Counted from the stretch's first letter, positions 20,652 through 39,443 are shown. The stretch: DNA of 39,730 bases from a bacterium (GCA_049472445.1 JBLIRT010000005.1:1-39730); one strand, 5' to 3'. Numbers and translations: made by a program. The notes: generated from the sequence alone by a model not told the origin.

Positions 20652-20740
20652 GTCTACTCTCCTTCTGCTGATTTCTCCAACAGCTAACTCCACGTGAGCA
20701 TAATCCCTTTGAAGTGTTATCATGCTCAATTTCAATTCCA

Positions 20741-21334: not shown

Positions 21335-21342
21335 AGAGAGAT

Positions 21343-21372
21343 AAAATACCACTCATGAGAGTGGTATGTCAA
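21343..21372 (-). promoter_or_regulatory. sigma70 promoter with an embedded 9-bp inverted repeat (candidate operator)
   Basis: Minus strand TTGACA-18 nt-TATTTT with an extended TG; ATACCACTC-N4-GAGTGGTAT at 21346-21367. Confidence 0.65.
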
Positions 21373-21379
21373 GAAAAAA

Positions 21380-24217
21380 TTATTTGACAGCCTCTATGAA
21401 GCAGAATCCAAGGTTGCTGTCATTCTCTTCGGGAGGAGTCAGGTATCTTTTTGTACTCTCATAAGGAGTGGCATATACATAGTCGGAATATTCGCTTTCG
21501 GTGCCGTAGATGTTATAGGCTGTAACCTTCAGGACATAGGTGGTACCATTAACCAAGCCCTCAACCTTATAGAAGGTTTTATAACCGGCGTCTCTTCGCA
21601 CACTGGGATCCTGGCGGCTGGTTTCAATATCATTTTCCGTTCGGTAATAGACATAATAACCAACGACCTCCGGATCATCGGCGGGGTTCCAGGTAAGAAG
21701 GATACTTGCATTCTCAGCAGTGCCTATTAAGCGTGTCGGAATATCAGGGGCCTGACTGATGCCACGGTTTCCAAATATCTCTTTAATCCTGGCCTTATGT
21801 ATTCCCCCATACATTTCCTGATCCTGCATCAATACTGACACCAAAAAATCGGCAAGGGTTGTATCTCCATTATATCGAGCAAAATGAAAAAGAGTATCTG
21901 CAACTTCTGAGCCTAATTCTCTCCGAACATCCCACATGGCACCGGACAGGATTAAGCTGTTGGCATAGGGATCATCCCCGTAATCATCAGGGTATTTAAA
22001 AGAATTGTCCAAATTGCGTATATACGAATGTCCTATCCAAAGATCCCCATCGCCAATCAAAGGATCATCATTGAGAGTGGCAGCCCAATAATCTGAAAAA
22101 GCTTCATGAATAGCATCCAGTTCTGTTGTTATGATACGATTTTGCGTAGATGTATCACTATCATCGGTGGTTATATCTGTTGGGGAATTTCCTGACACCG
22201 GAATAAAGCCTGAAACCGGAATAAAATGGGAATAAAAGCTCTCGGTCAGGGCGTGAGTATATTCATGATAGATGATGTCTGAAAACAAAGCGAAGTTACG
22301 GTATCCATCCGCCTTGTTGTCTCCACCCCCCAAATAGATTCTATGGTCCGGAGACCAGTAGGCATTATTATAATCATCACCCCAATTGATGAAAACTTTT
22401 ATCGGCCCCTTTTGATCCATTGCTCCAAATTCAGGCTCAATACTTTCCATGTATTGAATCATCCGATTGATATGATAATAAGCATTCAATTCACCATAGC
22501 TGCCTGAGAGGTTGTCATTATTGGGATCCTGGGGATCAAGGGAATGATCGATAACATAATCTGAGGGAATATCTTCAAACACATAGAATGGATCGCGAGT
22601 ATTCTCATTGAAGACCTGGACATATTTACCGGCCAGCCTGGCTGTGACAGTGTTCTTTACCCATTCGGAAGAAAAGGTGAATTCCCCATTGGGATCAGTA
22701 TACGAAGAGACACTTTCCGCTATTTCCACATCATCGATGTTCCAGCCGCAGAAGACTCCGGAGCTGTCAGTTGGGCCCATACACCATCGTACATATATAA
22801 TCTGATTATCAGCATACCGGGAAATATCAAAGGTTTGCAGGTTCCATCCATACCAGGTACTATTCAGGCTGTTATAGACGCCATCATCAACCTGGTTCAT
22901 ACCATTGGACCAGAGAGTGGTCCAGATGATTCCATCGTAAGAGATATCTATTGAGGCACGATCAAAATAGCCATATCTATCCAACTCATCACCGCTGTAT
23001 TCTTTAGAGACACCCAACCAGCGCCAGAATCTCAAGACTAATCCGGATTTATTGAGGCAATTGATAGGATTAGTGGTCAGATATTTAGGTCTCATGAAAT
23101 CGGAATAATCGCCCGTTAGATTATAGCCGTAGACATTCAACCCTGTATGTCCTGAGCCTGGGTCAGGTGCCCCGGAGTGCCCCGGCGTATTGAGGTTCAT
23201 CAGGTTGGCAGGAGTCGGCTGGCCATACTGCCACAAGCCCTCCACCTGCCACCCTGGATCACTATCCAGGAATTCCTGATATACCGGCTCGCTTTTATTC
23301 AGTAAATACACTTTCTGGTTACTGAGGGTTACTCTCACTGGCGCATCGTTGTAGTATCGGGGCAGGATCATGCCTTGAATTCGACCGGATATAGCGGGGC
23401 GGGACCAATTATACCGGAAAAGCAGTTCTCCTGTCCGTGCATCCACAAGGTATCGCCACACATCCTTTTCAACTACCCAGGCCAGATGGTACTCCAAGTC
23501 GTCATCAACATAAAAGGGGAAAATTACCAGGCTGGTTGTATTATTCATGCCTTGAGAAGTCAGGTTCAAGTCCTGATTCACTACCCTTTGAGCTTCGGTC
23601 TCGTCAATGAGAGGAATCACTTCAAGAGAAATGTCCGGATAGGTATCCGCTCCGAAAGCCAGCAACTGGTACATCTCATCAAAGCGAAGCCCTATTCGAC
23701 TTCCATATACCGGGATATTTCGATATCTTTGTTGAAAATCCAGATACCAGATTCCTCCTCTTTTGTTGATTCTGGTAAGATAGATCTCAGAATCTCCGAG
23801 CCGAAAGAGCTCTTTATTTTCTTCGATGAACTGTTCAGCATAGTTCACCAACTCCTCCTGGCCCCATACCAAAGGCCGCCATAATCCTTCTAACGGAGAA
23901 AAGCTCTTTCGCACCACCCGATGAGGAACCTTGGTTGTTTTATTCCAGGTGGCCTGCCACTCAGAGCCATACCTCCTTAAAAATTCGTGCCAAGATTTAT
24001 CTTTTGCTTCTTCAGAAATCTTTCGAACAGCAGTGCGTTGCCTGATTTTTTTTCCTGTCAGATAGGTATCGTGCCGGACATTCTCATAGGACAAAAAAGC
24101 CAAGGCCTTACTTGTAAAAAAAGGTATGCTCTCTAAAATAACTACTGAAAGAAGTATTAAGATATTTAAAAAAGCTGCATTTTTACGTATATCAGATTGG
24201 CCATATATTCGTTTCAT
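21380..24217 (-). CDS. Secreted M4/M36-like zinc metallopeptidase: FTP/PepSY propeptide, inserted beta-sandwich domain, FN3 domain, CFI-box-type C-terminus
   Basis: FQQRYRNIPVYG, YLVDARTGELL, NNAYW, HEYTH, AIHEAFSD, FN3 (LTWNP..VGYYVYY...GLVNGTTY.LKVTAYN), ends LGFCFIEAVK. Confidence 0.85.
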   Translation of the reverse strand: MKRIYGQSDIRKNAAFLNILILLSVVILESIPFFTSKALAFLSYENVRHDTYLTGKKIRQRTAVRKISEEAKDKSWHEFLRRYGSEWQATWNKTTKVPHRVVRKSFSPLEGLWRPLVWGQEELVNYAEQFIEENKELFRLGDSEIYLTRINKRGGIWYLDFQQRYRNIPVYGSRIGLRFDEMYQLLAFGADTYPDISLEVIPLIDETEAQRVVNQDLNLTSQGMNNTTSLVIFPFYVDDDLEYHLAWVVEKDVWRYLVDARTGELLFRYNWSRPAISGRIQGMILPRYYNDAPVRVTLSNQKVYLLNKSEPVYQEFLDSDPGWQVEGLWQYGQPTPANLMNLNTPGHSGAPDPGSGHTGLNVYGYNLTGDYSDFMRPKYLTTNPINCLNKSGLVLRFWRWLGVSKEYSGDELDRYGYFDRASIDISYDGIIWTTLWSNGMNQVDDGVYNSLNSTWYGWNLQTFDISRYADNQIIYVRWCMGPTDSSGVFCGWNIDDVEIAESVSSYTDPNGEFTFSSEWVKNTVTARLAGKYVQVFNENTRDPFYVFEDIPSDYVIDHSLDPQDPNNDNLSGSYGELNAYYHINRMIQYMESIEPEFGAMDQKGPIKVFINWGDDYNNAYWSPDHRIYLGGGDNKADGYRNFALFSDIIYHEYTHALTESFYSHFIPVSGFIPVSGNSPTDITTDDSDTSTQNRIITTELDAIHEAFSDYWAATLNDDPLIGDGDLWIGHSYIRNLDNSFKYPDDYGDDPYANSLILSGAMWDVRRELGSEVADTLFHFARYNGDTTLADFLVSVLMQDQEMYGGIHKARIKEIFGNRGISQAPDIPTRLIGTAENASILLTWNPADDPEVVGYYVYYRTENDIETSRQDPSVRRDAGYKTFYKVEGLVNGTTYVLKVTAYNIYGTESEYSDYVYATPYESTKRYLTPPEENDSNLGFCFIEAVK

Positions 24218-24372
24218 AATGTACTCCCCCTTTTAATTTTCAGGATCTTGAGGATCTATCCATCCTGATAGCCCTTACCTGCATGAGCTTCCCCCGATAA
24301 AAATCTCTCATGTATGGAAATCCTGGTGGATAGAGTTATGTGTGGAGATTCGGCCTTCTCAGATTTGGATGA

Positions 24373-24390
24373 TAGCAAGTTAGATGCCAA
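24373..24390 (-). promoter_or_regulatory. sigma54 (-24/-12) promoter for the peptidase gene
   Basis: Minus strand TTGGCATCTAACTTGCTA, near-consensus TGGCA-N6-TTGC. Confidence 0.75.
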
Positions 24391-24492
24391 TGGTAAGTAA
24401 TAAAATACCCTGTGAGATCATAGGAATTGTGCTGATAATTGGTTGATATGTTACATCGGAGGTGTTCACAAAAGGTGGGCCTTGCACCACAT

Positions 24493-24511
24493 GTATTGCA
24501 GCCTTGAAACA
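24493..24511 (-). promoter_or_regulatory. Candidate enhancer (UAS), copy A
   Basis: Minus strand TGTTTCA-AGGC-TGCAATAC, about 105 bp upstream of the -24 GG; same motif at 28569. Confidence 0.65.
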
Positions 24512-24598
24512 TAGGGAATGAAGAGGATTATTGAGAAAAGAATGCAGAAGGGGAGACCATCGGCAGCATAGTGCTTTGGCGAAAGGATTGAATAAACG

Positions 24599-27451
24599 CT
24601 AGCCGGCCATTACCTCCAAATTCTCCGGTTTCGATATCTTATGCCTCTTCATCTTTCGCCACAGGGTTGTCCGGCTGATACTCAGTTTCATAGCTGCCCT
24701 GGAGATATTCCATTGACAATTCTCCAAGGTATCAAGCAGAGTTGATTTTTCAGTACCTGTCATTAATTCCTGCATGGAAGGGGTTTTTTCCATTTCAAAG
24801 ACAGGATCAAGGTTGGTTATTTCTGCCGGGAGATCCCTCACCTTAATTTCCAGATCACGGCAGCGGATGACTGCATATTCTATCGTATTTTCCAACTGGC
24901 GAACATTCCCGGGCCAGTCATATTCCCACAATATATTTAAGGCCTTCTGAGAGATACCTTTAATCTGTTTCCCGATTTTGGTATTCATCTTTTGAATAAA
25001 ATGCTCTGCCAGCAAAGGAATATCTTCTTTTCTCTCCCGTAAGGAGGGAACAGTGATCGGCACCACGTTCAGGCGGTAATACAAGTCCTCCCGGAACGTT
25101 CCCCTGGCTACAGCATCTTTCAAATCCTTATTGGTAGCTGCAATAATTCGAACATCGATCTTAATCCTTTCTCTGCCTCCCACTCTTACAATTTCCCGTT
25201 CCTGGACAACCCGAAGCAATTTGATTTGCTCATTCAGGTTGATATCCCCAATCTCATCGAGAAAAATGGTCCCCCCATTGGCCTGCTCAAAGCGGCCCGG
25301 TTTATCACTGATAGCGCCGGTAAAGGCTCCCTTGACATGTCCAAACAGTTCACTCTCCAGCAAGTGCTCAGACAGCACCGAGCACGTCACCTCAACAAAG
25401 GGATAATCACACCGGGGGCTGTGGTAGTGAATGGCCTGGGCGATCAATTCTTTTCCCGTTCCGCTTTCACCTTTCAACAGCACCGTACTGTTATTTTGAG
25501 AGACGGTATTGATCAGATCGTAGATTTCCAGCATCTTCATACCGTTGCCGATGATGTTGCCAAACTGGTATGTCTTTATCTTAGCTTCCGATCTTCTTTC
25601 CTGCCAATCCCGCAGTTGCTCCTCCAGCCTCTTTCTTTCGGAAATATCCCGGCCGATGCCCATGATTTGGGTTATTTCTCCCTTTTTCCCCAGGAATGGC
25701 GTCTCATTAATTTCCAGAAAAATCTTTTTGCCATCCCTGGTCAAAAATTCAGTCCAATAAGGCTCAAGAGGCTCCCCCCTGGTACATAGCCGAATAGGTG
25801 ATTCCATAAAGCTTTGGTTAATCGGGTTTGAACTGAGAATTTTTTCTTCAGGGAGACTCTTGAATTCCTCCGGCGAGTATCCAAGGATACGCTGAACCGC
25901 ATGGCTGACAAAGGTAATGGCACCCTGAGGGTTACGGATAAAAATCAAGTCATTGGTTGTATTGATCAGGGTATTTAATTTATCCCGCTCTTCCTTGATT
26001 TCTCGCTCTGCCTCTGTTTTTTCCCGAATGTCCCGGGCGATGCCGACAATTTCCAAAAGGTGCTGTTCTTCATCCAGCATGGGCCATCCTAAAAAGCTGA
26101 CAGGAATGGTTTCGCCGGATTTCGTGACCATGGCACAGGAATGATCATCGATTACTCCTCTTTGAGCGATAGTATCGAGATCTATCTCTTTCAAGGGGCA
26201 ATTCTTTTGAAAGAGACAATCAAATGGCTTGCCTATCAATTCATCTCTCTCATACCCTAATATCTTCAAGGTAGCCTGGTTGACAAAGGTGATTCTTTGC
26301 TCGGGCGAAATAATGATCAGAAGGTCGTGGATGGTGTTAATAATGGAGTGAAAATAATTTTTGGAAATCAAGGTACGCTGTAGATTTTCATTCATGGCAT
26401 TGAAAGCCTTCGATAGGGTTATGAGCTCCTTGTGGGAGTCTATTTCCTCTCTGGTGGTCAAATCTCCTGCCGACACACGATGAGTGGCTTGAATTAATTG
26501 CTCAATGGGGCTGGTTATTCCCTTACTGATGAGGAAGCCGAGGAAGAGAAGTAACGTTCCTCCTATGATGCCGGCCCACAGCAGTTTCAGAATAATTTTT
26601 CTGAGGCTTTTCTTTTTATCCTGCAGGCTTGAGGCAAGCATGAGAGTTCCCACGGTTTGTCCCCGGATGTCTTGAAAAGGAAAAGAAAGCGCATGATACT
26701 GGGTGTCGTAGATATAAATCTGCTCGAAGGCCTGTGGTGATTTTTTCCTGGCCTGAAGAATGCTTTCCTGGATTTCCGGCGGAATGGAGAGTGACTCGCC
26801 TGCTTTGGTGGGAATAGTACTGAAAATAGCCTTGACACCTTTAAAAATCAAAACATCCAGGCCGGTCAGCCGGTGTATTTTTCTAAAAAAATCATCACCG
26901 AGAAAACGGATGGCGGATACATATCCCATGATTACACCCGGAGAATGATAAACAGGAGAGATTATTTTCAAGATAAAACCCTGACCTGTATTGCCAAATC
27001 CGAAAATATCCCCGGTAATTTCCCCTTTTCCAATCAGGCCCTGGAATTCACGTATCTCTTCTGCCCTTTGATTGAGCGGGGAATTCTGCTGAGCCACTAA
27101 TTTTCCCCTCTCATCAAAGAGGGCGATGAGATCAAGGTCGAGATCATGTTGCCACCTGGACAGATGAGCAGAAAATTCCTTCCGGTCTTCCCTCATATTC
27201 TGCAAGATATCCGGAAAAATGGCACTGGACATACAACGTAACATCTGTTTCAGATGGTGTATCTCGTCAGGCAGAAGCTCTTTCTCCAGGAATTGTATTT
27301 GGGCCGCTATTCTCTTATTTATGGCCTTATCAAGTTCCTGGTCAACTATTTTTGTTTCCATACCCATATGAGTCAGAAAGAGAGTAAGAAATACCAGGAG
27401 AAAGGGGATTAAAATGCCTTTCAATATGGTATTCGGCTTCTTTTTATCCAT
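24599..27451 (-). CDS. Membrane-anchored one-component sigma54 activator (TM, extracytoplasmic Cache-like sensor, TM, HAMP, PAS, PAS, AAA+, Fis-type HTH)
   Basis: Two TM helices, HAMP (ITSPIEQL...GDL...EL..LSKAFNAM), two PAS domains ending RDI, GESGTGKE, ESELFGHVKGAFTGA, FLDEIG, FREDLYYRL, WPGNVRQL, HTH ISRTTLWRKM. No receiver or kinase domain. Confidence 0.94.
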   Translation of the reverse strand: MDKKKPNTILKGILIPFLLVFLTLFLTHMGMETKIVDQELDKAINKRIAAQIQFLEKELLPDEIHHLKQMLRCMSSAIFPDILQNMREDRKEFSAHLSRWQHDLDLDLIALFDERGKLVAQQNSPLNQRAEEIREFQGLIGKGEITGDIFGFGNTGQGFILKIISPVYHSPGVIMGYVSAIRFLGDDFFRKIHRLTGLDVLIFKGVKAIFSTIPTKAGESLSIPPEIQESILQARKKSPQAFEQIYIYDTQYHALSFPFQDIRGQTVGTLMLASSLQDKKKSLRKIILKLLWAGIIGGTLLLFLGFLISKGITSPIEQLIQATHRVSAGDLTTREEIDSHKELITLSKAFNAMNENLQRTLISKNYFHSIINTIHDLLIIISPEQRITFVNQATLKILGYERDELIGKPFDCLFQKNCPLKEIDLDTIAQRGVIDDHSCAMVTKSGETIPVSFLGWPMLDEEQHLLEIVGIARDIREKTEAEREIKEERDKLNTLINTTNDLIFIRNPQGAITFVSHAVQRILGYSPEEFKSLPEEKILSSNPINQSFMESPIRLCTRGEPLEPYWTEFLTRDGKKIFLEINETPFLGKKGEITQIMGIGRDISERKRLEEQLRDWQERRSEAKIKTYQFGNIIGNGMKMLEIYDLINTVSQNNSTVLLKGESGTGKELIAQAIHYHSPRCDYPFVEVTCSVLSEHLLESELFGHVKGAFTGAISDKPGRFEQANGGTIFLDEIGDINLNEQIKLLRVVQEREIVRVGGRERIKIDVRIIAATNKDLKDAVARGTFREDLYYRLNVVPITVPSLRERKEDIPLLAEHFIQKMNTKIGKQIKGISQKALNILWEYDWPGNVRQLENTIEYAVIRCRDLEIKVRDLPAEITNLDPVFEMEKTPSMQELMTGTEKSTLLDTLENCQWNISRAAMKLSISRTTLWRKMKRHKISKPENLEVMAG

Positions 27452-28440
27452 TATACCTCTTCAATTCCTGCCTTTTCATTCAAAACTGAAACCTGACTAC
27501 CCTCTGCACCTTTCGAGGACAGAATGCCTACCCCTGAAAAACAGAGGAGAAAGGTAGCCATCGTGCCAAAGGTCCCTCCAAGGATTTTGGCCAGCTTTTG
27601 ATTCTTGATACCAGGAAGATGATAGTCCGGGATTGGCGCATGATAGGGGGCTATAATCTGAGGTGAGTTTACCTGAACACGGTTTAGGGCAAACTTTTTC
27701 AATCCGTCAGCAGATCTGGAAGCACAGGGTGAAATAACCAGACTAATCAGCAAGGCCATACTGAGCAGGACATAGGCTGTCTTCCGGGATGATCTTAATG
27801 AGTCCTGGCCTTGATAATGAGGGCCTCTTGGAGCCAGGAGCCGGAAACAACCCAGAAGAAAAACGGTCAGAATCCCTTCGGCAATTCCAACTTCTACATG
27901 AGGGCCCAGCATAGGGCTGATAGTGCCTGAAAATTTTTCAATTTCACAGATGGCTAACATTCCGCAGACTGTCAAGCTGGTAATTAACAGGGTGAGCCAG
28001 GCTGAAAGAAACGCACTCAGGTAGCTGCCATACGGCTCAATGACCAGGTTTTTCAGCAGTGAGTAAAGATAGTATCCTCCGAAGGTACTGACGCAAACAA
28101 TAGTCAGCAAATTGGGTCCGAAGGCCATGATCCCACCATCTTGAAAAATAAGGACCTGGATAATGTGGGCAAGTGTCATGACTATGGTGGCCAGGTAAGG
28201 GCCAAGGACAAGAGAGGCAAAAACACCTCCCATAAAGTGACAGGAAGAGCCGCGAGTTACTTCAAAATTAGCCATTTCCAGGGCAAAACAAAAGGCTCCT
28301 ATAGAGCCGGCTAATAAGACCTCATGGGTGGTATCTACCTTTTTCCAGATTTTCTTCAGGCTGTAAGCCAGAACTCCCCCACAGGCCAGATCCATAACCA
28401 GACAAAGGCCGTTACTATAGAATCCATCCGGAGCATGCAT
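27451..28440 (-). CDS. CbiM/NikM-like ECF S-component fused to a PDGLE-like domain
   Basis: ATG 28440 gives MHAPDGF; SCHFMGG, QVLIFQDGGIMAFGPN, HVEVGIAEGILT; ASRSADGLK...APIPDY (PDGLE-like). The stop overlaps the activator start (TAATG). Confidence 0.85.
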   Translation of the reverse strand: MHAPDGFYSNGLCLVMDLACGGVLAYSLKKIWKKVDTTHEVLLAGSIGAFCFALEMANFEVTRGSSCHFMGGVFASLVLGPYLATIVMTLAHIIQVLIFQDGGIMAFGPNLLTIVCVSTFGGYYLYSLLKNLVIEPYGSYLSAFLSAWLTLLITSLTVCGMLAICEIEKFSGTISPMLGPHVEVGIAEGILTVFLLGCFRLLAPRGPHYQGQDSLRSSRKTAYVLLSMALLISLVISPCASRSADGLKKFALNRVQVNSPQIIAPYHAPIPDYHLPGIKNQKLAKILGGTFGTMATFLLCFSGVGILSSKGAEGSQVSVLNEKAGIEEV

Positions 28441-28568
28441 TATTGGTGTGGCCCTCTCTTTCCTGAAATGAAAAGGTGTGTTGCACAGGAGGCTCATTTA
28501 TTTTATTCGGCAGGAACATGCTTTTTCATAAGGAAATCCTTTCAATTTTTACCTCTTGATCGTTTCTT

Positions 28569-28587
28569 TGTTTCAGAGATGCAATAC
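28569..28587 (+). promoter_or_regulatory. Candidate enhancer (UAS), copy B
   Basis: TGTTTCA-GAGA-TGCAATAC, about 111 bp upstream of the -24 GG; further TGAAAC half-sites at 28608-28620. Confidence 0.65.
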
Positions 28588-28695
28588 CTCGAACATATCC
28601 TTTTGAAACATGAAACCAGGTACATTGGTTATGGCTTTTTGGGAATACCTTACCTTTTTTGATTACCCTGTGTGCCGGGCACCCAGGTCATCCTT

Positions 28696-28712
28696 ATGGT
28701 ATAAATCTTGCT
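28696..28712 (+). promoter_or_regulatory. sigma54 (-24/-12) promoter for the cytochrome c/Rieske cluster
   Basis: ATGGTATAAATCTTGCT has TGG-N10-GC with TTGC. Confidence 0.7.
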
Positions 28713-28864
28713 CTTTTTTCGGCCCGATTATTCTGCTTTCAAATCATGGGGGATAATAACTATGCGACGATGTAATAAGAGGGGGGAAAATTATCTTTAC
28801 TGAAATAGCATCTTATTTTAAAAAAAGATTCATTATCTGATAGGCCTGAAAGGAGTGAGCTTGC

Positions 28865-29251
28865 ATGCGGTCTAAGGGGGGTATAGGAATAGCCATGTTT
28901 GTTCTGGGATTTTTGACGGCTGTAACGATGCCATATGGAGTCGCACGGAATGCGTACGCCCAAGGTAATAAGAAAAAAGATGTGTTGCAACTGGCTGAGG
29001 CCGGCAAGGTTTTACTCAGGGAAGGAAATTGCCTCATGTGCCACTCCTTGAATGGGGAGGGCGGGAACTCTGGAAAGGCTACAGATATAAGCGGCCTGGG
29101 TATACGCTATGAGCGGTCCGATTTGCGGGAATTGTTAATTAAGCATCTTTTTAAAAAGCCTGACATCAAAAGGTATGAGGGAGTATTTACTGAAGAAGAC
29201 ATTGAGGCACTGACTCAATATCTTTCCACCGTAAAAAATCCCGGCTTCTAA
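28865..29251 (+). CDS. Exported monoheme c-type cytochrome
   Basis: AAGGAG RBS; signal peptide; GKVLLREGNCLMCH; C-terminal TEEDIEALTQYL helix. Confidence 0.88.
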   Translation: MRSKGGIGIAMFVLGFLTAVTMPYGVARNAYAQGNKKKDVLQLAEAGKVLLREGNCLMCHSLNGEGGNSGKATDISGLGIRYERSDLRELLIKHLFKKPDIKRYEGVFTEEDIEALTQYLSTVKNPGF

Positions 29252-29345
29252 AAATGGTAGCCTCACTTTGGTAAAGTTATTATAACAGATAAGAAAAGCT
29301 GAAAAGGTTCTTCACTTAAGTCAAGGTACGTTGGAGCGTAATATC

Positions 29346-29816
29346 ATGGAGCTTATCGTTGTGGAATCGAATAAGACGCTGAAATCTTCTCTGGCAGCTA
29401 TGACTCGCCGGATTTTCCTGAACATTCTTTCGAAAGGAATCTGGGGAGGTATCATGGTGTATCTCCTTTATCCCATCGTCCATTTTCTCATCCCCCCTAA
29501 AGAATCTTCCCGCGACCTGGATATTGTTCAACTGAATGCGACCGAAGTTGAGGTTGGAAAAGCCAAAATCATCAGCTATCAAGATACTCCAACCATAGTT
29601 ATTAATACGAGCCAGGGAGTTCTTGCTCTTTCGGCTGTGTGTACTCATCTGGGATGTATTGTTCAATGGGATGAGAGCAAGCAGGAGATCGTTTGTCCCT
29701 GCCATGGTGCAAAGTATGACCTTAATGGAAATGTGATAACAGGCCCTGCACCGAAACCGCTAGCTATGGTCAAGGCCAGAATGATAGATGATAAAATTTA
29801 TATCGGAGAGGCTTGA
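29346..29816 (+). CDS. Rieske [2Fe-2S] protein (bc/b6f type) with a Tat-like anchor
   Basis: TRRIFL plus a TM helix; CTHLGC, CPCHG and GPAPKPL. Start uncertain (29331, 29346 or 29400). Confidence 0.92.
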   Translation: MELIVVESNKTLKSSLAAMTRRIFLNILSKGIWGGIMVYLLYPIVHFLIPPKESSRDLDIVQLNATEVEVGKAKIISYQDTPTIVINTSQGVLALSAVCTHLGCIVQWDESKQEIVCPCHGAKYDLNGNVITGPAPKPLAMVKARMIDDKIYIGEA

Positions 29817-29899
29817 TCCCACCAAAATCAGAATTTATGTTATTCGCTCTTTATTCTCACTCATTGGCTGAAGCTGAATATGGTATATGTGGAGGAACT

Positions 29900-31570
29900 A
29901 TGCGCAGCGACTTTTCACGTGGATGGTACGAAACGGTTATTCTTGCCTTGGGGGCTATTCTTACCGCTTTCTTATTTGCTTTTGGATGCGGCGGCAGTTC
30001 ATCATCTGATGATAGCCGAATCATTTCTGAATTTTCTGAAAAATCGAACCTTCCGACTGGTATTACCATTTCAGGAACATTAGGCTCTCTATTTTATGTC
30101 AAGTCTCTGTTTAAAGGGTCGGGCAACCCAGGGCCGGATGGTACGGCAGGGCCGCCCGCTAATGCTCCCGGCCCAGGCAGTATGGAAGATACATCAGGAG
30201 ATGAGGACGTATCCACGGAAACCGAATCCTCAGAGACCGATGTGGCCACAGGAAGCAGCCCTCCGGATGGCATGCCAGGCCCTCCGGCTGGCACCTCAGG
30301 CCCTTCGGATGGAACTGCCGGTCCCCCGGACGGCACCCCAGGACCTCCGGACGAAACTGCCGGCCCTCCGAATAATACGACAGGGACAGGTACCGGCCCC
30401 GGTTCAGGAAGTGGTACAGGGAGAGGCGGCAGAACCGCAGGTATCAGTATCAGTCAATATCCCCTGGCCATGGTTTTGGAGGGGACTACCTTATACGGTG
30501 TTCCTGATCTGATGGGATCTTTTAAGATTCAAACATGCCCTGCCGGAGATTATACCCTGGTTTTATATAGCTATGGAGAGGTAATAGCCAAAAAATACAT
30601 CCGCATATCTGCCAAGTACGATCTTACGTTGGGTGAAATAACAGATGTTGACGAGGATGGATTTCTGATCTGTAATGGCTTTGATGGGTATCGTTTCCCC
30701 TGGAAAGATGATGATGGGGATGGGGTTAACGATAATTTCACCGATGCTGACGGGGATGGAATAAATGATCTGACCGGCCAGGCTTATACACACGGATGTG
30801 GCTGGCAGGATGCTGACGGGGATGGGATCAATGATCATCTTATCGATGCTGATGGTGATGGAATCAATGATATTACCGGCCGTAGCTATGGTTTTACCTT
30901 TGGTTTCATTGATCAGAATGATGATGGATTACATGATCTTTTTCAGGATAATAATGGAGATGGAATTAATGATCTTCATGGAGTGGCTTATGCCCATGGA
31001 TTCGGCTGGCAGGATGCTGATGATAATGGGATAAATGATAATTTTACTGATGCTGATGGCGATGGAGCCAACGATCTGACCGGCCGACCGGTTATTTATG
31101 GATATCGGTTTGGATTTGTCGATTCAAATGGAGATGGAATCAACGACAACTTTGCTGATGCTGATGGAGACGGAATCTGTGATCAGGGAACGCCCTGCCA
31201 GGGAATGCCTTACGCCCATGGATTCGGCTGGCAGGATGCTGATGATAACGGAATCAACGATAATTTCACCGATGCTGACGGGGATGGAGTCAGAGATCTG
31301 ACCGGCCTGGGCTATACATATGGAAGAGATCGATACAGCTTTCATGACCAGGATGGAGACGGGCAAAATGATTCTTTCATGGACAGGAACGGTGACGGCA
31401 TCAATGATAAGTTTGCCGATGCCAACGGTGATGGTATCAATGATCTGGAAGAGGGGGATTCCTTCCGTCATGGCTTTGGCTGGCAGGATGAGAATAGAGA
31501 TGGAATCAATGATAATTTTACCGATACTGATGGCGATGGTATCAACGATCTTACAGGAATTCCTTATTGA
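29900..31570 (+). CDS. Lipoprotein with a Pro/Gly-rich linker and many DxDGDG Ca-binding-type repeats
   Basis: GGAGGA RBS before ATG 29900; lipobox FAFG-C; DGTAGPP repeats; repeated HGFGWQDADDNGINDNFTDADGDG units. Confidence 0.82.
   Translation: MRSDFSRGWYETVILALGAILTAFLFAFGCGGSSSSDDSRIISEFSEKSNLPTGITISGTLGSLFYVKSLFKGSGNPGPDGTAGPPANAPGPGSMEDTSGDEDVSTETESSETDVATGSSPPDGMPGPPAGTSGPSDGTAGPPDGTPGPPDETAGPPNNTTGTGTGPGSGSGTGRGGRTAGISISQYPLAMVLEGTTLYGVPDLMGSFKIQTCPAGDYTLVLYSYGEVIAKKYIRISAKYDLTLGEITDVDEDGFLICNGFDGYRFPWKDDDGDGVNDNFTDADGDGINDLTGQAYTHGCGWQDADGDGINDHLIDADGDGINDITGRSYGFTFGFIDQNDDGLHDLFQDNNGDGINDLHGVAYAHGFGWQDADDNGINDNFTDADGDGANDLTGRPVIYGYRFGFVDSNGDGINDNFADADGDGICDQGTPCQGMPYAHGFGWQDADDNGINDNFTDADGDGVRDLTGLGYTYGRDRYSFHDQDGDGQNDSFMDRNGDGINDKFADANGDGINDLEEGDSFRHGFGWQDENRDGINDNFTDTDGDGINDLTGIPY
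30705..31560 (+). repeat. Intragenic tandem repeats encoding D-x-D-G-D-G-I-N-D units
   Basis: GCCCATGGATTCGGCTGGCAGGATGCTGATGATAA recurs at about 30992 and 31214; degenerate units of roughly 32-40 aa throughout. Confidence 0.8.
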
Positions 31571-31897
31571 AATAAGAATATGCTCACCCAATAATAGCTC
31601 CAGGAGAAGCCTATGATAAAGGTTATGTTCAGACTTCCGCGTTCTGGTTTCTGAAATGGAGAAGTATGAAGAAGTATGTACCGAAAAATAAATCGAGATG
31701 TTCGTTCAATGTCTATCCGTCCTGAAGGCTTCATCTCCGAAATAAGCTATGCTTTGGCTATAATATTTAATATGCTGTTTATCTTATGAAAAAGGTAAAG
31801 TATGATAGATCGACATCAATGTTTTCATGTCTTAACTCTGTTGGGGGCGCTCCAGGTAAGGTACTTTTCTAGGTAAAATACTTATGATGGGATATGT

Positions 31898-33205
31898 ATG
31901 AATAGATACAGAGGAAAATTCATTACCTTACTTGGCCTTTTTTTGGTGATACTGATTATCTTTCAGGGGATTGGAAAAGCGGCCGGGCAAAGTGATGCGG
32001 AGAAAAAATCTAGCAGGAAAAGCCCAAAAAAGAAAAAAATCACCTGCATCACCTGTCATAATCACCTGGGTAAAGACAAAGCCGAATGGGTTAAACAGTG
32101 GCAGGAAAGTGTCCATGGGAAAAGCGATGTCTCGTGTCCGGACTGCCATGGGGGAAATCCTGCTTCCTTTAATAAGCCTAAAATCGAGGGAACAAATTTT
32201 AGAGGAAAGCCTTCACGTCTGGAAATTCCCGAATTTTGTGGTTCCTGCCATTCAGACCCCGCCCGGATGCGGCAGTTTCAAAAACGAATCGATCAGCTTG
32301 CCCAATATAAAACCAGCAGGCATGGGATAGGTTTGTTTCAGGCTAAGGATACGAAGGTAGCCGTATGTGTAGATTGCCATGGAAGACATGATATCGCCAA
32401 AGTCAGTGAATCTTCCTCTCCGGCTCATCATGGGAACATTGCCGAAACCTGCGGTGGATGCCACGCCAACAGCGATTACATGTCGCCCTATGGCCTTCCC
32501 ACAGATCAACTTACCTGCTACTATAAGAGTTACCACGGGATGATTATGAAAAATAAGATAGAAGGCAAAAATCCATCCCTGGTGCCCTCCTGCCCGGATT
32601 GTCACAGTCCTCATGGGCCTAAACCACCTGAAGTGTCTGAAGTGTCCAACATTTGTGGAAATTGTCATATGAATACGGCCAAATATTTTCATGAGGGAGA
32701 ACATAAAATCGCCCTGGAAGAACAAAACACTCCCAGATGCATTGATTGCCATGATAATCACGAGATAATTTTTCCCACCACCGAACTTTTTACGGGAGAA
32801 TCAGAGCATCATTGCGGCTTTTGCCATGCGACCACCTCGGAAGCTTATCAAAGGGGGCTTCGAATGAAAAAGGCACTGGAAAAGGCGGAGCAGGAAATAC
32901 ATGAAATAGAAAAAATAACTCACCAGCTTCAAAAAAAGCCTGGATATGACCCAAGGGACTTCGAAGAAAACATCCAGAAAGCCAAGCAAAGTATGGTACA
33001 GGCCATTCCGATAACTCACGTATTAAAAGAGGAAGAGGTAGCCCAATATACGGATGAAGCCCTTGCTTTCACACAAGATATCAGACACATGATTGATAGG
33101 GTAGGTGAGGAGTTAAGGAAGAGAAAAAAGTACCTTATGGCCAGTCTGGTAATTATTCTCATGATCATTTGCTTTTTATGGTATAAGCGGTCACGCATTG
33201 CCTAA
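31898..33205 (+). CDS. Multiheme cytochrome c (9 CxxCH) with a coiled coil and a C-terminal membrane anchor
   Basis: CITCH, CPDCH, CGSCH, CVDCH, CGGCH, CPDCH, CGNCH, CIDCH, CGFCH; N-terminal signal; C-terminal TM followed by YKRSR. Confidence 0.92.
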   Translation: MNRYRGKFITLLGLFLVILIIFQGIGKAAGQSDAEKKSSRKSPKKKKITCITCHNHLGKDKAEWVKQWQESVHGKSDVSCPDCHGGNPASFNKPKIEGTNFRGKPSRLEIPEFCGSCHSDPARMRQFQKRIDQLAQYKTSRHGIGLFQAKDTKVAVCVDCHGRHDIAKVSESSSPAHHGNIAETCGGCHANSDYMSPYGLPTDQLTCYYKSYHGMIMKNKIEGKNPSLVPSCPDCHSPHGPKPPEVSEVSNICGNCHMNTAKYFHEGEHKIALEEQNTPRCIDCHDNHEIIFPTTELFTGESEHHCGFCHATTSEAYQRGLRMKKALEKAEQEIHEIEKITHQLQKKPGYDPRDFEENIQKAKQSMVQAIPITHVLKEEEVAQYTDEALAFTQDIRHMIDRVGEELRKRKKYLMASLVIILMIICFLWYKRSRIA

Positions 33206-33488
33206 ACTGGCCATCCTCATCGTTCAGGCAACGAAAACCTTTCCTGATACCCCGCCCGATTCAGCCTTGTTTAGCCGTCTTTAAGCTGTTAAAAACACAG
33301 CTCGTAAAAGAAGTCATGATTCCAGCCTGGGGAACATCTGACTCAATACATACTTTTTTTTATCAGACCGATTAACTAACAGAGGGCAGAAAGGGTATTT
33401 TTCCCTTTATTGGTGAACGTGTTAAAAGGCTTTATGAAAAGAAGAAAAATAGTATAATAGAACATGAAGGGTTGAGGGGGTGAGACAC

Positions 33489-34459: not shown

Positions 34460-34581
34460 ATGGGTAAAGGCAGTCCAGCCATGGAGAAGAGGCCTCTCGG
34501 GGCTATGATTCAGGATTATTCCGGAATAAGAACGTTTTTATGAACCTGTAACCAGTAACTATAACTATGGGGAGATACTTT

Positions 34582-35394
34582 ATGAAAAAGGGAAAAATGA
34601 TCTCGGTTCTTTGCGTTCTATGCTTGTTTGCTTTCGTGATGGCGGGCTCTGTTTCCGCACACTTTGGAGTGGTCAAACCGTCAGATGATATTATTACCCA
34701 GGAAGATAGTAAGACCATTCAGGTCGAGGTTAAATTCATTCATCCTCATGAAGGACATTACATGGAAATGGCCAAACCGCAGCAGTTCGGGGTCATGGCC
34801 GGCGGCCAGAAGATTGATCTGCTCAATACCTTAACGGCTCAAAAAGGAAAATGGCAGGATCAGGAACAGGAGTTTACCTACTGGAGAGCCGATTATAAGA
34901 TTAAAAGGCCTGGTGATTATACCTTTTACGTAGTGCCGACTCCATATTGGGAACCGGCCGAAGATTGTTTTATTGTTCACTATACCAAGGCCTGCGTGCA
35001 GGCGCTGGGTTTGGAAGAGGGATGGGATGAGCCTCTTGGACTGAAAACAGAGATTGTTCCTCTAACCAGACCCTATGGATTATGGGTGGGAAATATCTTT
35101 ACCGGTGTGGTGCTCGTAGATGGGAAGCCGGTTCCTGATTCAGAAGTGGAAATTGAATATCTCAATGAAGATGCTGAAAACGGCAGCTTACTCAAAGCCC
35201 CCTCAGACCCTTATATCACTCAGATTGTGAAAACAGATCGAAACGGTGTATTTTCCTATGCCATGCCAAAGGCTGGATGGTGGGGATTTGCTGCCCTGAA
35301 TGAGGACTCAAAAACCATAAAGGGACCTGACGGTAAAGAGAAACCAATAGAAATTGGAGCAGTCTATTGGGTAAAAGCTGCAGCCGTCAAGTAA
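34582..35394 (+). CDS. DUF4198-family periplasmic component of a Ni/Co transporter (NikK-like)
   Basis: Signal peptide ending VSA-H; [40 protein letters not shown]. Confidence 0.88.
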
Positions 35395-35450
35395 TATTGC
35401 TTATTGAACAGGAGTGGCTTCCGGACGGCCATTCCGCACATCCGGATAAT

Positions 35451-35478
35451 CCTCCCTTGCCTCTTTCGGCAAGGGAGG
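35451..35478 (+). other. Intercistronic GC-rich hairpin
   Basis: CCTCCCTTGCC-tctttc-GGCAAGGGAGG perfect 11-bp stem with no U-tract. Confidence 0.6.
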
Positions 35479-35524
35479 TGAAGACTTTATGGAGAAATGA
35501 ACAGACAGAAAGAGGGGATTTTCA

Positions 35525-36178
35525 ATGGAGAGATTCTGTTACAGGCAGGGTAAGGTGCTGATCTTCCTCCTTACCTCTCTTTTCATGGTGCTGGCGGTTA
35601 TTTCAGACTCATATGCCCACAAGGTAAATATCTTTGCCTATGTTGAGGGTGATCTGGTTTATACGGAGAGCTACTTTCCGGATGGCCGAAAGGTTGAGGG
35701 AGGGACCGTAGAAGTTTATGACAGCATGGGAACAAAACTTCTCTCCGGTACTACTGATCAGGATGGCCGATTCAACTTCCGTCCCCCCGGGAAAGATGAT
35801 CTGAAGATTGTCCTGATAGCGAGTATGGGTCACCAAAATAGCTACACCCTCTCATCTGATGAATTAGCTGGGATTTCAGAAGGGAAAACCCATGATACAT
35901 CGGATAAAGGTGAATTGACGGGGAAGATGAGCGATGATCACAGCATCCCGGAAAATAAGCCGGTGGACGAGGCGGTCACATCCTCTCAGCCGATCAATCT
36001 TAGAGAGATCAGGAAAATTATTGATCAGTCTCTGGATCAAAAATTACAGCCGGTAGTAAGAGAATTGGCCAAGTCCCGGCATCAGGAAAGGATATCAGCT
36101 ACAGAAATCTTTGGTGGCATAGGTTATATTTTTGGTCTTATCGGCATGGCCCTGTATTTTTCAAAAAGGACTTCCTAA
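35525..36178 (+). CDS. NikL/CbiL-like accessory membrane protein
   Basis: Signal ending SYA-HKVNIFAYVEG; C-terminal IFGGIGYIFGL TM; located between DUF4198 and cbiM. Confidence 0.78.
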   Translation: MERFCYRQGKVLIFLLTSLFMVLAVISDSYAHKVNIFAYVEGDLVYTESYFPDGRKVEGGTVEVYDSMGTKLLSGTTDQDGRFNFRPPGKDDLKIVLIASMGHQNSYTLSSDELAGISEGKTHDTSDKGELTGKMSDDHSIPENKPVDEAVTSSQPINLREIRKIIDQSLDQKLQPVVRELAKSRHQERISATEIFGGIGYIFGLIGMALYFSKRTS

Positions 36179-36217
36179 TCACAGAGTACTTGAGCGTTTT
36201 CTCAAAAAGGAGTCTAC

Positions 36218-36832
36218 ATGCATATTTCTGATGGAGTGTTGCCTAATACGATCTGTATCGGCGGATATCTTCTGGCCATGGGGGTAAGTGCCGTATGCAT
36301 TAAGAAGTGCATGGAACCGAAAGAACTTCCCAAAATAGCAGTTATGACCTCTGTCTTCTTTGTAGCTTCCCTGATCAGCGTTCCGCTCGGCCCCACCAGT
36401 GTTCATCTTATCCTGCCGGGCCTGGTGGGAGTTACCCTGGGCGCCATGGCCTTTCCATCAGTTATGTTAGGTCTGGTCTTACAATCCATTCTCTTTCAGC
36501 ATGGCGGATTGACTGCCATCGGGGCCAATACCCTGATGATGGGCATACCGGCTATCATGAGCGGCCTCTTATTCCGGCAGGTCAGGAATTCAGACAATCG
36601 AAGCTTTATAATAAGTACCGGTTCTTTCTGCGGTGCCCTGGGGACCTTGCTGGCCGGTATCATACTGGCCCTTCTTTTATTCACCTCCGGTGAGGATTTC
36701 CTTGGAGTGGCCAAGGTGGCTCTGGCAGCTCACGTACCGGTCATCATCATTGAAGCTGTTATAACCGGTGTGGTGGTATCCTTTCTTCTGAAGGTGAAGC
36801 CAGACCTTATAGGAGCACGGAGAAGACCATGA
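36218..36832 (+). CDS. cbiM: Ni/Co ECF transporter S-component CbiM/NikM
   Basis: N-terminal MHISDGVL metal-binding motif, TSVHL, LQSILFQHGGLTAIGAN, HVPVIIIEAVITG. Confidence 0.92.
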   Translation: MHISDGVLPNTICIGGYLLAMGVSAVCIKKCMEPKELPKIAVMTSVFFVASLISVPLGPTSVHLILPGLVGVTLGAMAFPSVMLGLVLQSILFQHGGLTAIGANTLMMGIPAIMSGLLFRQVRNSDNRSFIISTGSFCGALGTLLAGIILALLLFTSGEDFLGVAKVALAAHVPVIIIEAVITGVVVSFLLKVKPDLIGARRRP

Positions 36833-37035
36833 TTGCCCTTTTTTCTTTTCTTTTTTCGATCCTTGGATTCCCCGGAGGGCTTAACGTAGTCTATGCTCTG
36901 GCCAGTGGAGATGAGGCACTCATAGTTCATCGTATTGAGCTGCCGACCTATTTTCTCCTCTTTATTATTCTCGGATTGATGGCCATTGCCTGGGGAGTTT
37001 TGAAAATTTTCCGCCATGTGGACCATGACCGTTAA
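36829..37035 (+). CDS. Small membrane protein coupled to cbiM
   Basis: ATGA overlap with the cbiM stop; two hydrophobic segments; ends RHVDHDR. Confidence 0.55.
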   Translation: MIALFSFLFSILGFPGGLNVVYALASGDEALIVHRIELPTYFLLFIILGLMAIAWGVLKIFRHVDHDR

Positions 37036-37067
37036 AAATCCATGATCCCGAAGACAGGGGCATTTTT

Positions 37068-37844
37068 ATGAAGCCTGACATAGACCGCTACTGGAAGCTT
37101 GAGTCTCCCATTCACGTCTGGGATCCGCGCTTTAAGATTTTTTCTCTGATCTTCCTGGCCTTTACCATCTCATCCGTCCAGCGGATTTCTACAGCTCTGG
37201 CCTGCCTTGTTCTTTCCCTTCTGCTCCTGCAATTGACCAGGATTCCCTTCTCCTTTTCGTTGAAACGATTAGCTGCGGTGACCATGTTTGTCGGCCCCTT
37301 TTTTGTTATTATGCCGCTGACTACCAGGGTTCAGCCCGGTGACACCATTTATTTCTTTACTCACCTGCGGTTTCTTGAGATCAATACCCGAGGGCTGCTT
37401 CTAGCCGGCCAGGTGTATATAAAAGCTGTCGCTATTGTCTTACTGGTGGTTCCCATGTTCGGTACGAATCGTTTCGATATCTCCATAAAGGCCATGGAGA
37501 GGCTCAAGGTTCCGAATAGCGTGATCCAGATGATATTATTTTCGTACAGATACATCTTTGTCTTCCTGGCCGAATTAAAACGGATGTCACTGGCTATGAG
37601 GATTCGGAAATTTACACCGTCGACAGATCTTCACACCCTGAAAACCTATGGCAATTTTTTAGGCACCCTGCTGGTGAGGAGCTTTGAAAGAACCGAGGAG
37701 GTTTATCAGGCCATGTTGAGCCGAGGCTATAGAGGTGTTCTGAAGATCCATTTCGATTATCAGACCGGGGCTAAAGATCTGGTGAAAAGTACTTTGATCT
37801 TTGCGGCTATTTCCGGTATTATCTATTTTGATCGATTCTTTTAA
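37068..37844 (+). CDS. cbiQ: ECF transmembrane T component CbiQ/NikQ
   Basis: SPIHVWDPRFK, YRYIFVF, LLVRSFER, AMLSRGY. Confidence 0.92.
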   Translation: MKPDIDRYWKLESPIHVWDPRFKIFSLIFLAFTISSVQRISTALACLVLSLLLLQLTRIPFSFSLKRLAAVTMFVGPFFVIMPLTTRVQPGDTIYFFTHLRFLEINTRGLLLAGQVYIKAVAIVLLVVPMFGTNRFDISIKAMERLKVPNSVIQMILFSYRYIFVFLAELKRMSLAMRIRKFTPSTDLHTLKTYGNFLGTLLVRSFERTEEVYQAMLSRGYRGVLKIHFDYQTGAKDLVKSTLIFAAISGIIYFDRFF

Positions 37845-37857
37845 GGGAGCCTTATTC

Positions 37858-38643
37858 GTGGCTGAAAGATTGCCGGCTATTACCATAGAGGACCTGCATT
37901 TCACCTATCCTGACGGCACTATAGCCCTGCGCGGTGTTCATCTGACGATTTATGAGGGAGAGGCAGTCGCTCTGGTAGGCAGGAACGGATCGGGGAAATC
38001 AACCCTGATTAAGCATCTGAACGGTATCTACCAGGCTGATAAGGGAAAGATTACCGTCGATGGTTTGCCGGTTATCGAAGAAAATCTGCAGCTTATTCGC
38101 TCCCGGATAGGCATTGTCTTTCAGGATCCGGATAATCAGCTTTTTTGTTCTACTCTTTACGATGATGTAGCTTTCGGGCCGATCAATATGGATAAGGACA
38201 GAGAGACAATAGGCCGGAGGGTTCGAGAATCGCTTGAACAGGTAGGTCTTTGGCCGCTGGCTGAACTGCCTCCCCATGATCTGAGCTTTGGCCAGAGGAA
38301 GCGGGCAGCCATGGCTACGGTTCTTTCCATGCAGCCAAGAATTATGATTTTCGATGAACCTACCAGCAATCTTGATCCCAAAAACGAGGCTGTCATGACC
38401 GATATTATTGCTAACCTTGGCTGTACAAGAATATTAATCAGTCACGACCTGCCCATTCTCTATCAGGTCTGTGAGAAGGTGATTATCATGAAGGAGGGTC
38501 AGATTGAGCATATTCTTCCCATGCAGGATTTTATTTCAGATCGCGAGCTGCTCCGGGCCAATGGTCTGGACTTTACCTTCAAATGCGACTGCTGCAGTAA
38601 CCATGATCACCCGTCACCTCCTGACCTTGAGTTAAGATCATGA
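37858..38643 (+). CDS. cbiO: ECF ATPase CbiO/NikO, copy 1
   Basis: GTG 37858 after AAGGGAG; GRNGSGKST, FQDPDNQLF, LSFGQRKR, FDEPT, SHD. Confidence 0.92.
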   Translation: MAERLPAITIEDLHFTYPDGTIALRGVHLTIYEGEAVALVGRNGSGKSTLIKHLNGIYQADKGKITVDGLPVIEENLQLIRSRIGIVFQDPDNQLFCSTLYDDVAFGPINMDKDRETIGRRVRESLEQVGLWPLAELPPHDLSFGQRKRAAMATVLSMQPRIMIFDEPTSNLDPKNEAVMTDIIANLGCTRILISHDLPILYQVCEKVIIMKEGQIEHILPMQDFISDRELLRANGLDFTFKCDCCSNHDHPSPPDLELRS

Positions 38644-39443
38644 GTCACAAGAAACCGATTGTTCAGGTCCAGAATATTTTCTTTTCCTACCATCACAGCC
38701 GAACCGATTCCTTACGGGGAATCAGTTTTGAAATCCGTGAGGGAGAGTCGGTAGCTCTGGTCGGGCCCAACGGGGCCGGCAAATCAACCCTGGCCAGGCA
38801 TCTTACCGGCATACTTTTTGCCCGCTCAGGGTCGGTGCTCATCGACGGCGTATCAGCAGGTCCCTCTACCCTGAAACATATCCGCGATGTAGTCGGTCTT
38901 GTTTTCCAGAATCCTGATGACCAGCTTTTCTGTCCAACCGTAGGTGAAGAGATTGAATTCGGATTGACGAATATGAAGTTGTCTCCTTCCGTGATTCATA
39001 ACCGGACTATTGAATCAGCAAAAGCCATGAATATCCAGCATCTCCTTCGGAAACCGGCCCACCACCTGAGCGGAGGAGAAAAGAAAAGAGCGGCTATAGC
39101 CGCTGTACTGGCCATGAATCCCAAAATCCTTATCCTCGACGAACCTACAGCTAATCTGGATCCGCAAAATGAAAAGGCACTCACCGATCTTATCAATTCC
39201 CTGAACTGCACGAAGCTGATCATCAGCCATGACCTGCCTATCTTATTCCAGACGTGCCAGCGTATTCTGGTCATGGTTGATGGCCAGGTACGGAAGGATT
39301 GTTCCGTACCGGCGTTTATGCTTGACCGGAATCTCATTCTGGAGCATGGTTTGGATTACCGGTTTAAATGCAAGTGTTGTAAGGCCATTCATCCTGAACG
39401 ATTCCTGGCTACCACAACAAGTGTAAATGCCCTGGAGCCTTAG
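38640..39443 (+). CDS. cbiO: ECF ATPase CbiO/NikO, copy 2
   Basis: ATGA overlap; GPNGAGKST, FQNPDDQLF, LSGGEKKR, LDEPT, SHD. Confidence 0.92.
   Translation: MSHKKPIVQVQNIFFSYHHSRTDSLRGISFEIREGESVALVGPNGAGKSTLARHLTGILFARSGSVLIDGVSAGPSTLKHIRDVVGLVFQNPDDQLFCPTVGEEIEFGLTNMKLSPSVIHNRTIESAKAMNIQHLLRKPAHHLSGGEKKRAAIAAVLAMNPKILILDEPTANLDPQNEKALTDLINSLNCTKLIISHDLPILFQTCQRILVMVDGQVRKDCSVPAFMLDRNLILEHGLDYRFKCKCCKAIHPERFLATTTSVNALEP

Follow-up and report, generated by a model that had tools for sequence, protein, structure and literature searches.

To our knowledge, the S-components found in transporters of the energy-coupling factor (ECF) type are known to date solely as subunits for transport, and the sensing of extracytoplasmic nickel and cobalt is poorly understood. 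Among other classes of transporter, BceAB-BceS and LysP-CadC are pairs in which a transporter and a sensor sense together. Sensor units of this general kind have been described for DctA and DcuS (PMC4280142, in part). In such pairs, also called trigger transporters, the transport protein is encoded alongside or acts jointly with a membrane sensor and has the part of a co-regulator. The closest published idea for S-components themselves is a link at the level of fold: the 5TMR-LYT sensor histidine kinases have the S-component fold, loss of an AxxxA motif marks the receptor derivatives, and it was suggested that solitary S-components might be intermediates that link ECF transporters with sensor kinases (Partipilo and Slotboom 2024; PMC11109136, in part). 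The words CbiM, NikM and sigma are absent from the main text of that paper, and our full-text literature searches, which covered few subscription journals and did not extend to supplements, found no paper on a CbiM or NikM protein paired with a sensor. Here we analyzed a stretch of bacterial DNA of 39,730 nucleotides (GCA_049472445.1, JBLIRT010000005.1:1-39730; "the window" denotes this whole stretch), from contig C155 of a metagenome-assembled genome of 2.85 Mb in 209 contigs that is 77% complete. On its minus strand the window encodes a CbiM-PDGLE (Nik(MN)-like) S-component of 329 residues, P0003 (27454..28440), and directly downstream of it a membrane-anchored sigma54 enhancer-binding protein (EBP) of 950 residues, P0002 (24599..27451). 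Our analyses suggest that the branch of CbiM-PDGLE proteins to which P0003 belongs is probably the metal-binding partner of a gene switch.

The described proteins most like P0003 are the Nik(MN)/CbiMN S-units of group-I ECF transporters, such as TtNikM2 (4M58/4M5B), RcCbiMQO (5X3X) and the fused RcNik(MN), with which it shares both CbiM and PDGLE domains, the N-terminal Met-His, a metal-binding network, the AxxxA motif and a NikM2-like fold. Pfam placed a CbiM domain (PF01891) at residues 2–201 with an E-value of 2.6e-40 (138.9 bits against a cut-off of 23.1; ~27838-28437, minus strand) and a PDGLE domain (PF13190) at residues 219–304 with an E-value of 5e-10 (39.6 bits against 27; ~27529-27786, minus strand), the motif that names the latter reading ADGLK in P0003 and AEGLE or PDGLE in its relatives. 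The open reading frame (ORF) extends over 27451-28497, and its likely true start, as judged from related genes, is the ATG at 28440, from which the protein begins MHAPDG. An ATG further upstream at 28497 was considered as the start and is disfavored because a His codon stands directly after the start in all 17 related loci, whose genes open with ATG, GTG or TTG followed by that codon.

Alignment of P0003 with TtNikM2 begins at residue 1 (E 2e-20; the alignment to 4M58 ends at residue 145) and superimposes Met1, His2 and His68 on Met1, His2 and His67 of NikM2, which are nickel ligands there and are accompanied by a network of Gln94, Gly101, Gly102, Asn109, His190 and Glu198 (PMC3945884, in part). 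The P0003 residues His68, Gln95, Gly102, Gly103, Asn110, His181 and Glu188 were present in 100% of 22 subfamily sequences, with His181 and Glu188 being equated with NikM2 His190 and Glu198 by motif only, and His2 was present in 91%. Pro4, Asp5 and Gly6 were likewise retained in 91–100% of the same sequences, and all eight metal-site residues, His2 included, were found in 100% of 73 transporter-type sequences. The AlphaFold2 model of P0003 (predicted local distance difference test score, pLDDT, of 81.6) has a multi-helix, NikM2-like fold with an extra N-terminal helix, and its PDGLE part consists of two helices, 213–239 and 281–307, either side of an exposed segment. The best matches of this model in the PDB were 4M5B and 4M58, with target-normalized TM-scores of 0.78–0.79 and a root-mean-square deviation of 2.8 Å. 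We interpret P0003 as a bona fide NikM-type metal-binding S-component.

What distinguishes P0003 from the Nik(MN)/CbiMN S-units is that it lacks adjacent CbiQ and CbiO genes and belongs to a separate clade, at 24–37% identity to the transporter-type proteins, in which a sensor gene almost always adjoins. Specific to this clade are the sequence SSCH ahead of the His ligand, in place of TSGH, and a conserved VIEPYG loop. The Cys at position 67 occurs in 91% of subfamily sequences versus Gly in 100% of the 73 transporter-type ones, and further near-invariant cysteines are C20 and C159. In a tree of 135 sequences, the 22 subfamily members formed one side of a branch with a support of 100 in the Shimodaira-Hasegawa-like approximate likelihood ratio test (SH-aLRT) and the 113 other CbiM sequences formed the other; as the tree was produced by a quick search (LG+G4) and was rooted on one long-branched outgroup, it is the split that we draw on here, and we make no use of the root. 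P0003 scored under every NCBIfam CbiM cut-off, the best being NF005598 with 117 bits versus 401, and the CbiM of a transporter encoded elsewhere in the window passed NF004905 (205 versus 173). A similar separation was found in a search of 5.8 billion proteins, in which 30 foreign clusters had an identity of at least 45% (E <= 6.5e-85) and the next match had only 38% (E 1e-30). Within the host phylum the subfamily was identified in 10 of 20 species genomes, all from a single order and two of its families, and a genome could have as many as four copies. The annotation label "energy-coupling factor ABC transporter permease" is probably wrong for the function of this clade.

Comparison of gene neighborhoods underscored the difference from transporter-type loci. 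Scanning of genome contigs located 73 other CbiM-PDGLE loci (27–37% identity, mostly Chloroflexota), and among the ordinary ones with at least 2.5 kb of downstream sequence, CbiQ/CbiO genes were directly downstream in 53 of 55 and a sensor gene in none. The converse held for the seven subfamily loci found in the same scan, all of which had a sensor downstream (by raw matches and Pfam) and none of which had CbiQ/CbiO within the fetched flanks. In the window, Pfam searches of the ORFs identified neither CbiQ nor CbiO from 20313 to 34567. A separate complete Ni/Co ECF transporter is encoded on the plus strand at 34567..39443, and consists of a DUF4198 protein, a NikL family protein, CbiM (36218-36832), an ORF of 68 residues with a transmembrane (TM) segment (36829-37035), CbiQ and two CbiO proteins. 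The distance to the pair is 6.1 kb for the start of this cluster and 7.8 kb for the start of its cbiM, and the CbiM has 24% identity to P0003. Rfam detected no riboswitch or other RNA family at threshold anywhere in the window, and hence no link to a cobalamin or NiCo riboswitch. As a separate observation, on contig C20 of the same genome (locus L009, 6665-7492) ftsZ and tyrS flank a solitary CbiQ/EcfT gene that lacks an ATPase gene beside it and could be a shared ECF module.

The downstream partner, P0002, was assigned from its translation and from Pfam and NCBIfam searches. In order from its N-terminus it has a first TM helix, a periplasmic dCache_3 domain (residues 87–276, E 1.6e-12; ~26624-27193), a second TM helix, a HAMP domain (~26378-26530) and two PAS domains (~26021-26317 and ~25643-25978), followed by an output part made up of an AAA+ domain with GAFTGA (~25055-25555), a lid and an HTH_8 domain (~24644-24751). 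The match to Sigma54_activat (PF00158) was particularly strong (E 2.6e-68, 229 bits) and was accompanied by matches to AAA_lid_14, the two PAS domains, HAMP and HTH_8; the GAFTGA motif is present in the translation. P0002 thus resembles EBPs of the NtrC/NifA class in having a sigma54 interaction domain with GAFTGA, a lid and a Fis-type helix-turn-helix, and in the presence of rpoN in the genome, on contig C197, and of -24/-12-like elements near its gene. It differs from that class in its input, which consists of two TM helices, the periplasmic dCache_3 domain and HAMP, and which makes it a one-component, membrane-anchored activator. EBPs described so far are mostly soluble, and if our interpretation is true, P0002 represents an unusual membrane-anchored sigma54 activator; it reached no NCBIfam equivalog cut-off.

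The two genes meet in a stop/start overlap, TAATG (27449..27453, minus strand), that would couple them. The junction reads GTA TAA TGG, the TAA stop and the ATG start having base 27451 in common, and the same overlap was observed in locus L118 and in a second, paralogous pair on contig C204 of the same genome, whose proteins have 63% (CbiM-PDGLE) and 59% (activator) identity to those of the window. Across the subfamily, overlaps of 1–23 nt were found at the junction in eight of 17 loci, or in up to 11 depending on the start codon taken. These results bear on an earlier reading of this DNA (the original prediction), which was made from the sequence alone and which had described a CbiM-like protein with a MHAPDG start and PDGLE-like C-terminus, no adjacent T or ATPase gene, a TAATG junction and a separate CbiM/Q/O transporter about 6 kb off. 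That description of the locus proved accurate. Its architecture for the activator (2TM-HAMP-PAS-PAS-AAA+(GAFTGA)-HTH) was borne out by Pfam in what it listed, and omitted the periplasmic dCache_3 domain; it also overlooked the second pair in the genome and the histidine-kinase versions described below.

A total of 18 subfamily loci were identified in the phylum, 17 of which have at least 680 bp of downstream DNA, and a homolog of the N-terminal module of the sensor was directly downstream in 15 of those 17 readable loci, all but G005:C140 and G001:C89. In readable metagenome loci, the activator gene was directly downstream in four of four. Counting from the sensor gave a comparable result: the CbiM-PDGLE gene was directly upstream in 11 of 13 sensor homologs, with both exceptions occurring in genome G005, and all eight genomes with a sensor match also hold the subfamily. 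At G001:C114, the contig ends 257 bp after the CbiM-PDGLE gene. The gene arrangement in G005 is unusual, with a CbiM-PDGLE gene that has no sensor and adjoins a gene for pyruvate:ferredoxin oxidoreductase (PFOR) at C140 (locus L116), and with sensor genes at C165 (L125) and C615 (L131) that have 700–900 bp of empty DNA upstream. Possibly the two sensors of that genome share a single CbiM-PDGLE protein that acts in trans; a fragmented assembly is another possibility.

An additional feature of these loci is that the sensors do not all have the same output domain. The AAA+ sigma54 fusion was present in eleven loci, whereas five others (L014–L018) encode HAMP-PAS-HisKA-HATPase kinases, some with a REC domain (that of L018 is cut by the contig end after HisKA), and the kinases of L014 and L016 are followed by REC-AAA+-HTH (NtrC-type) regulators. 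The kinases have only 22–26% identity to the window sensor, and even so their alignment with it runs from TM1 through the periplasmic domain and TM2 to HAMP and takes in an I/L-x-x-P-F motif of TM1. Since the alignment extends over this TM1-periplasmic-TM2-HAMP portion, the membrane input module is the part that travels with the CbiM-PDGLE gene. The conserved partner of the CbiM-PDGLE protein is a TM-periplasmic-TM-HAMP-PAS module, whatever output domain it carries, as a co-receptor model predicts.

Structure prediction of the pair was undertaken with residues 1–365 of the sensor (an alignment of 18 sequences) and the CbiM-PDGLE protein (an alignment of 32 sequences). The interface score ipSAE was 0.62, 0.65 and 0.54 in three runs (median 0.62), compared to 0.00 for the best of three controls, and agreement between the runs extended to at least 83% of contacts with a partner pLDDT of at least 73. 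The mark applied for ipSAE is attained by 58 of 80 solved complexes and by two of 110 mismatched pairs, counts that apply only approximately here, since we supplied alignments of our own. On the sensor side the predicted interface is formed by TM1 (residues 12–37), TM2 (280–288) and the periplasmic residues 223 and 245–247, and on the partner side by CbiM residues 125–132, 145–156 and 169–182 together with PDGLE residues 250–255. We know of no complex of a like kind, and the prediction is therefore unlikely to echo a solved structure. This prediction supports binding between the sensor and the CbiM-PDGLE protein, and the two may be in physical contact in the membrane.

Taken together, we lean, at somewhat better than even, towards the CbiM-PDGLE protein being a ligand-binding co-sensor, or "trigger transporter", of the adjoining membrane sensor. 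A metal-sensing co-receptor was also what the original prediction had proposed, with conserved synteny, CbiM-sensor fusions, a phylogeny and complex prediction named as ways of examining it and non-conservation of the pairing, or a grouping with ordinary transporter NikMN, as grounds for giving it up. The pairing is instead conserved, the clade is distinct from ordinary Nik(MN), the input module is constant, and the complex prediction stood apart from its controls, all in keeping with the proposal, which we regard as supported in part. Other observations pull in the opposite direction. The AxxxA motif of core helix 1 (A49, A53) is kept in P0003 as in transporter-type proteins, so that P0003 may still dock to an ECF module. 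Three more CbiQ/EcfT genes, of which one is solitary, occur in this genome, and their products could act in trans. CbiM together with CbiN is reported to be enough for basal cobalt transport (PMC7689651, in part). P0002 has its own dCache_3 domain and could bind a signal alone. Residues of the predicted interface are no more conserved than those elsewhere in the protein (0.69 versus 0.70; Mann-Whitney p 0.63), and their consensus is no more divergent from that of transporter-type proteins (the same in seven of 26 residues, versus 91 of 274 elsewhere). Synteny is broken at G005:C140 and at G001:C89, and as the genomes are kin, their loci are not independent and the synteny counts overstate independence. 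No CbiM-sensor fusion was found among proteins of 577–2000 residues, where one CbiM-CbiQ fusion was the only fusion seen, although this is weak evidence. Finally, sigma54-like matches over the whole window were not above chance (13 found versus 17 expected), and no obvious Ni/Co enzyme is among the cytochromes, Rieske protein, PFOR and surface proteins that make up the putative targets.

Many of these points, namely the kept AxxxA, the other ECF modules in the genome, the minimal cobalt transport unit of CbiM and CbiN, the extracytoplasmic domain of the sensor, the unremarkable interface and the broken synteny in G005, would, along with the intact metal site, suit a protein that is an importer only. 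It would take up Ni/Co alone or with CbiQ/CbiO or EcfT/EcfA in trans, while the regulator sensed its own ligand via dCache_3 and PAS with no signaling contact between the two. We regard this as unlikely, albeit a serious contender, as it leaves unexplained why this clade alone among the CbiM-PDGLE examples examined has no adjoining CbiQ/CbiO, and why the same sensor input is kept across two output types, often with a stop/start overlap; the controls passed by the complex prediction and the restriction of the sensor module to subfamily-holding genomes also speak against it. A quite different possibility is that transport was lost and the protein is purely a receptor for a ligand other than Ni/Co, with the Cys of SSCH shifting the site to a softer metal or a redox signal. 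The prevalence of Cys67 in the subfamily, the near-invariant C20 and C159, the failure of P0003 to reach any NCBIfam CbiM cut-off and the redox proteins among the neighbors (cytochrome, Rieske and PFOR) would fit such a role, yet the four NikM nitrogen ligands and the hydrogen-bond network are unchanged and AxxxA is retained, and we therefore consider it improbable. That the adjacency is mere chance or a relic without functional link has in its favor that every locus belongs to a single order of a single small phylum, in which shared ancestry inflates the counts. However, the pair persists through duplication to as many as four copies per genome, through the change of output domain, down to identities of 45–50% (CbiM-PDGLE) and 22–26% (sensor), and while the flanking genes differ, which leaves this explanation with almost no weight. 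The kept AxxxA, the further CbiQ/EcfT genes and the transport by CbiM and CbiN together are why we prefer a co-sensor in which transport may be retained to a receptor from which it is lost.

The co-sensor that we favor would resemble the trigger transporters of the DctA-DcuS type in its logic and would differ from them in its parts, as P0003 is an ECF S-component and not a secondary carrier or ABC permease, and the sensors fall into two families, the one of membrane-anchored sigma54 activators and the other of kinases. The comparison with the 5TMR-LYT kinases is similar in that an S-component fold is linked to signal sensing. However, in those kinases the likeness is only at the level of fold, the S-component-like part and the kinase are fused in one protein and AxxxA has been lost, whereas P0003 is a member of CbiM at the level of sequence, is a separate polypeptide, keeps AxxxA and has an intact metal site. 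If the co-sensor interpretation is true, an ECF member would be added to the known transporter co-sensors, and the subfamily would provide a concrete, testable case of the transporter-to-receptor transition that was proposed from fold comparisons (PMC11109136, in part). A further step, which we put forward tentatively and at less than an even chance, is that a Nik(MN)-family S-component became the dedicated metal receptor subunit of a two-protein sensor, in which the TM helices and dCache_3 domain of the partner read the response to metal and the output is either a sigma54 AAA+ domain or a histidine kinase. If so, it would be the first natural ECF transporter/receptor intermediate and a new bacterial way of sensing extracytoplasmic Ni/Co.

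A mechanism consistent with these data would begin with the binding of a divalent transition metal beneath the PDGLE loop, at the extracytoplasmic site of Met1, His2 and His68. The metal is most likely Ni2+ or Co2+, the conserved ligands being the evidence for that assignment. The resulting change would pass by helix-helix contacts to TM1 and TM2 of the sensor and to the membrane-proximal part of its dCache_3 domain, and the signal would reach the AAA+ domain by way of HAMP and both PAS domains. The latter would then act, with activation as the presumed sign of regulation, on flanking sigma54 promoters, both the divergent one of the cytochrome c-Rieske-Asp-rich lipoprotein genes and one downstream. 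In the sister family, the same input pair would feed a histidine kinase and an NtrC-type regulator. Transport by P0003 may be retained alongside signaling.

Candidate promoters are present on both sides of the pair. A sigma54-like -24/-12 element, TGGTATAAATCTTGCT, is located at 28697..28712 on the plus strand, 153 bp before the ATG (28865) of a divergent cytochrome c-Rieske-orf585 operon, and a near-identical counterpart occupies the corresponding position in L013 and L119. Upstream of its -24 element, by ~90–130 bp, which is a typical activator-site distance, is the inverted repeat TGTTTCA-N28-TGAAACA (28569-28610), which together with a second TGAAAC spans 28569..28616 (no strand assigned). 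The repeat is within a block conserved in five orthologous intergenic regions and is a candidate upstream activator site. The other element, TGGCATCTAACTTGCT, is at 24374..24389 on the minus strand, 210 bp after the activator stop and 157 bp before the ATG of a gene for a protein of 945 residues. Among the 11 EBP-type loci, nine have a sigma54-like element on the opposite strand no more than 1 kb upstream, and six have one 41–247 bp after the stop. The upstream density was 10 sites in 11 kb, versus a background of 39 in 136 kb for which both strands were counted.

The divergent genes (28865..33205, plus strand) are the probable target operon, identified by Pfam and translation, and encode a cytochrome c (28865-29251), a Rieske protein (29331-29816), orf585 (29813-31570) and a multiheme cytochrome (31898-33205). 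Both orf585 and the Rieske gene are divergent neighbors of the pair in L013, L092, L093 and L119 as well. The orf585 product matched no Pfam or NCBIfam family, and has a lipoprotein-like N-terminus, a Pro/Gly-rich linker and at least 10 Asp-rich repeats (DADGDGIND..TD) that look calcium- or cation-binding. On the other side of the pair, the 945-residue protein (21380..24217, minus strand) is secreted, has a weak M4-peptidase match plus fn3 and, with a sigma54-like element upstream of its gene, is a possible downstream target. It was rejected as a firm target because it is not conserved in the orthologous loci, which have CarboxypepD_reg proteins there instead.

The paralogs of the C204 type adjoin either PFOR or a Big_9 surface protein. 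A PFOR gene is divergent to the paralogous pair in two genera, represented by L008 (G000:C204, 1723-5349) and L116, and in L008 a sigma54-like element at 5786-5801 on the minus strand is aimed at it. Elsewhere in the window, a gene on the minus strand at 20313-21352 encodes a LexA-like repressor (LexA_DNA_bind and Peptidase_S24) and overlaps the gene of a zinc-ribbon protein of 143 residues, and the GC content dips to 0.40 over 10001-12000, as opposed to 0.44–0.52 in the remainder.

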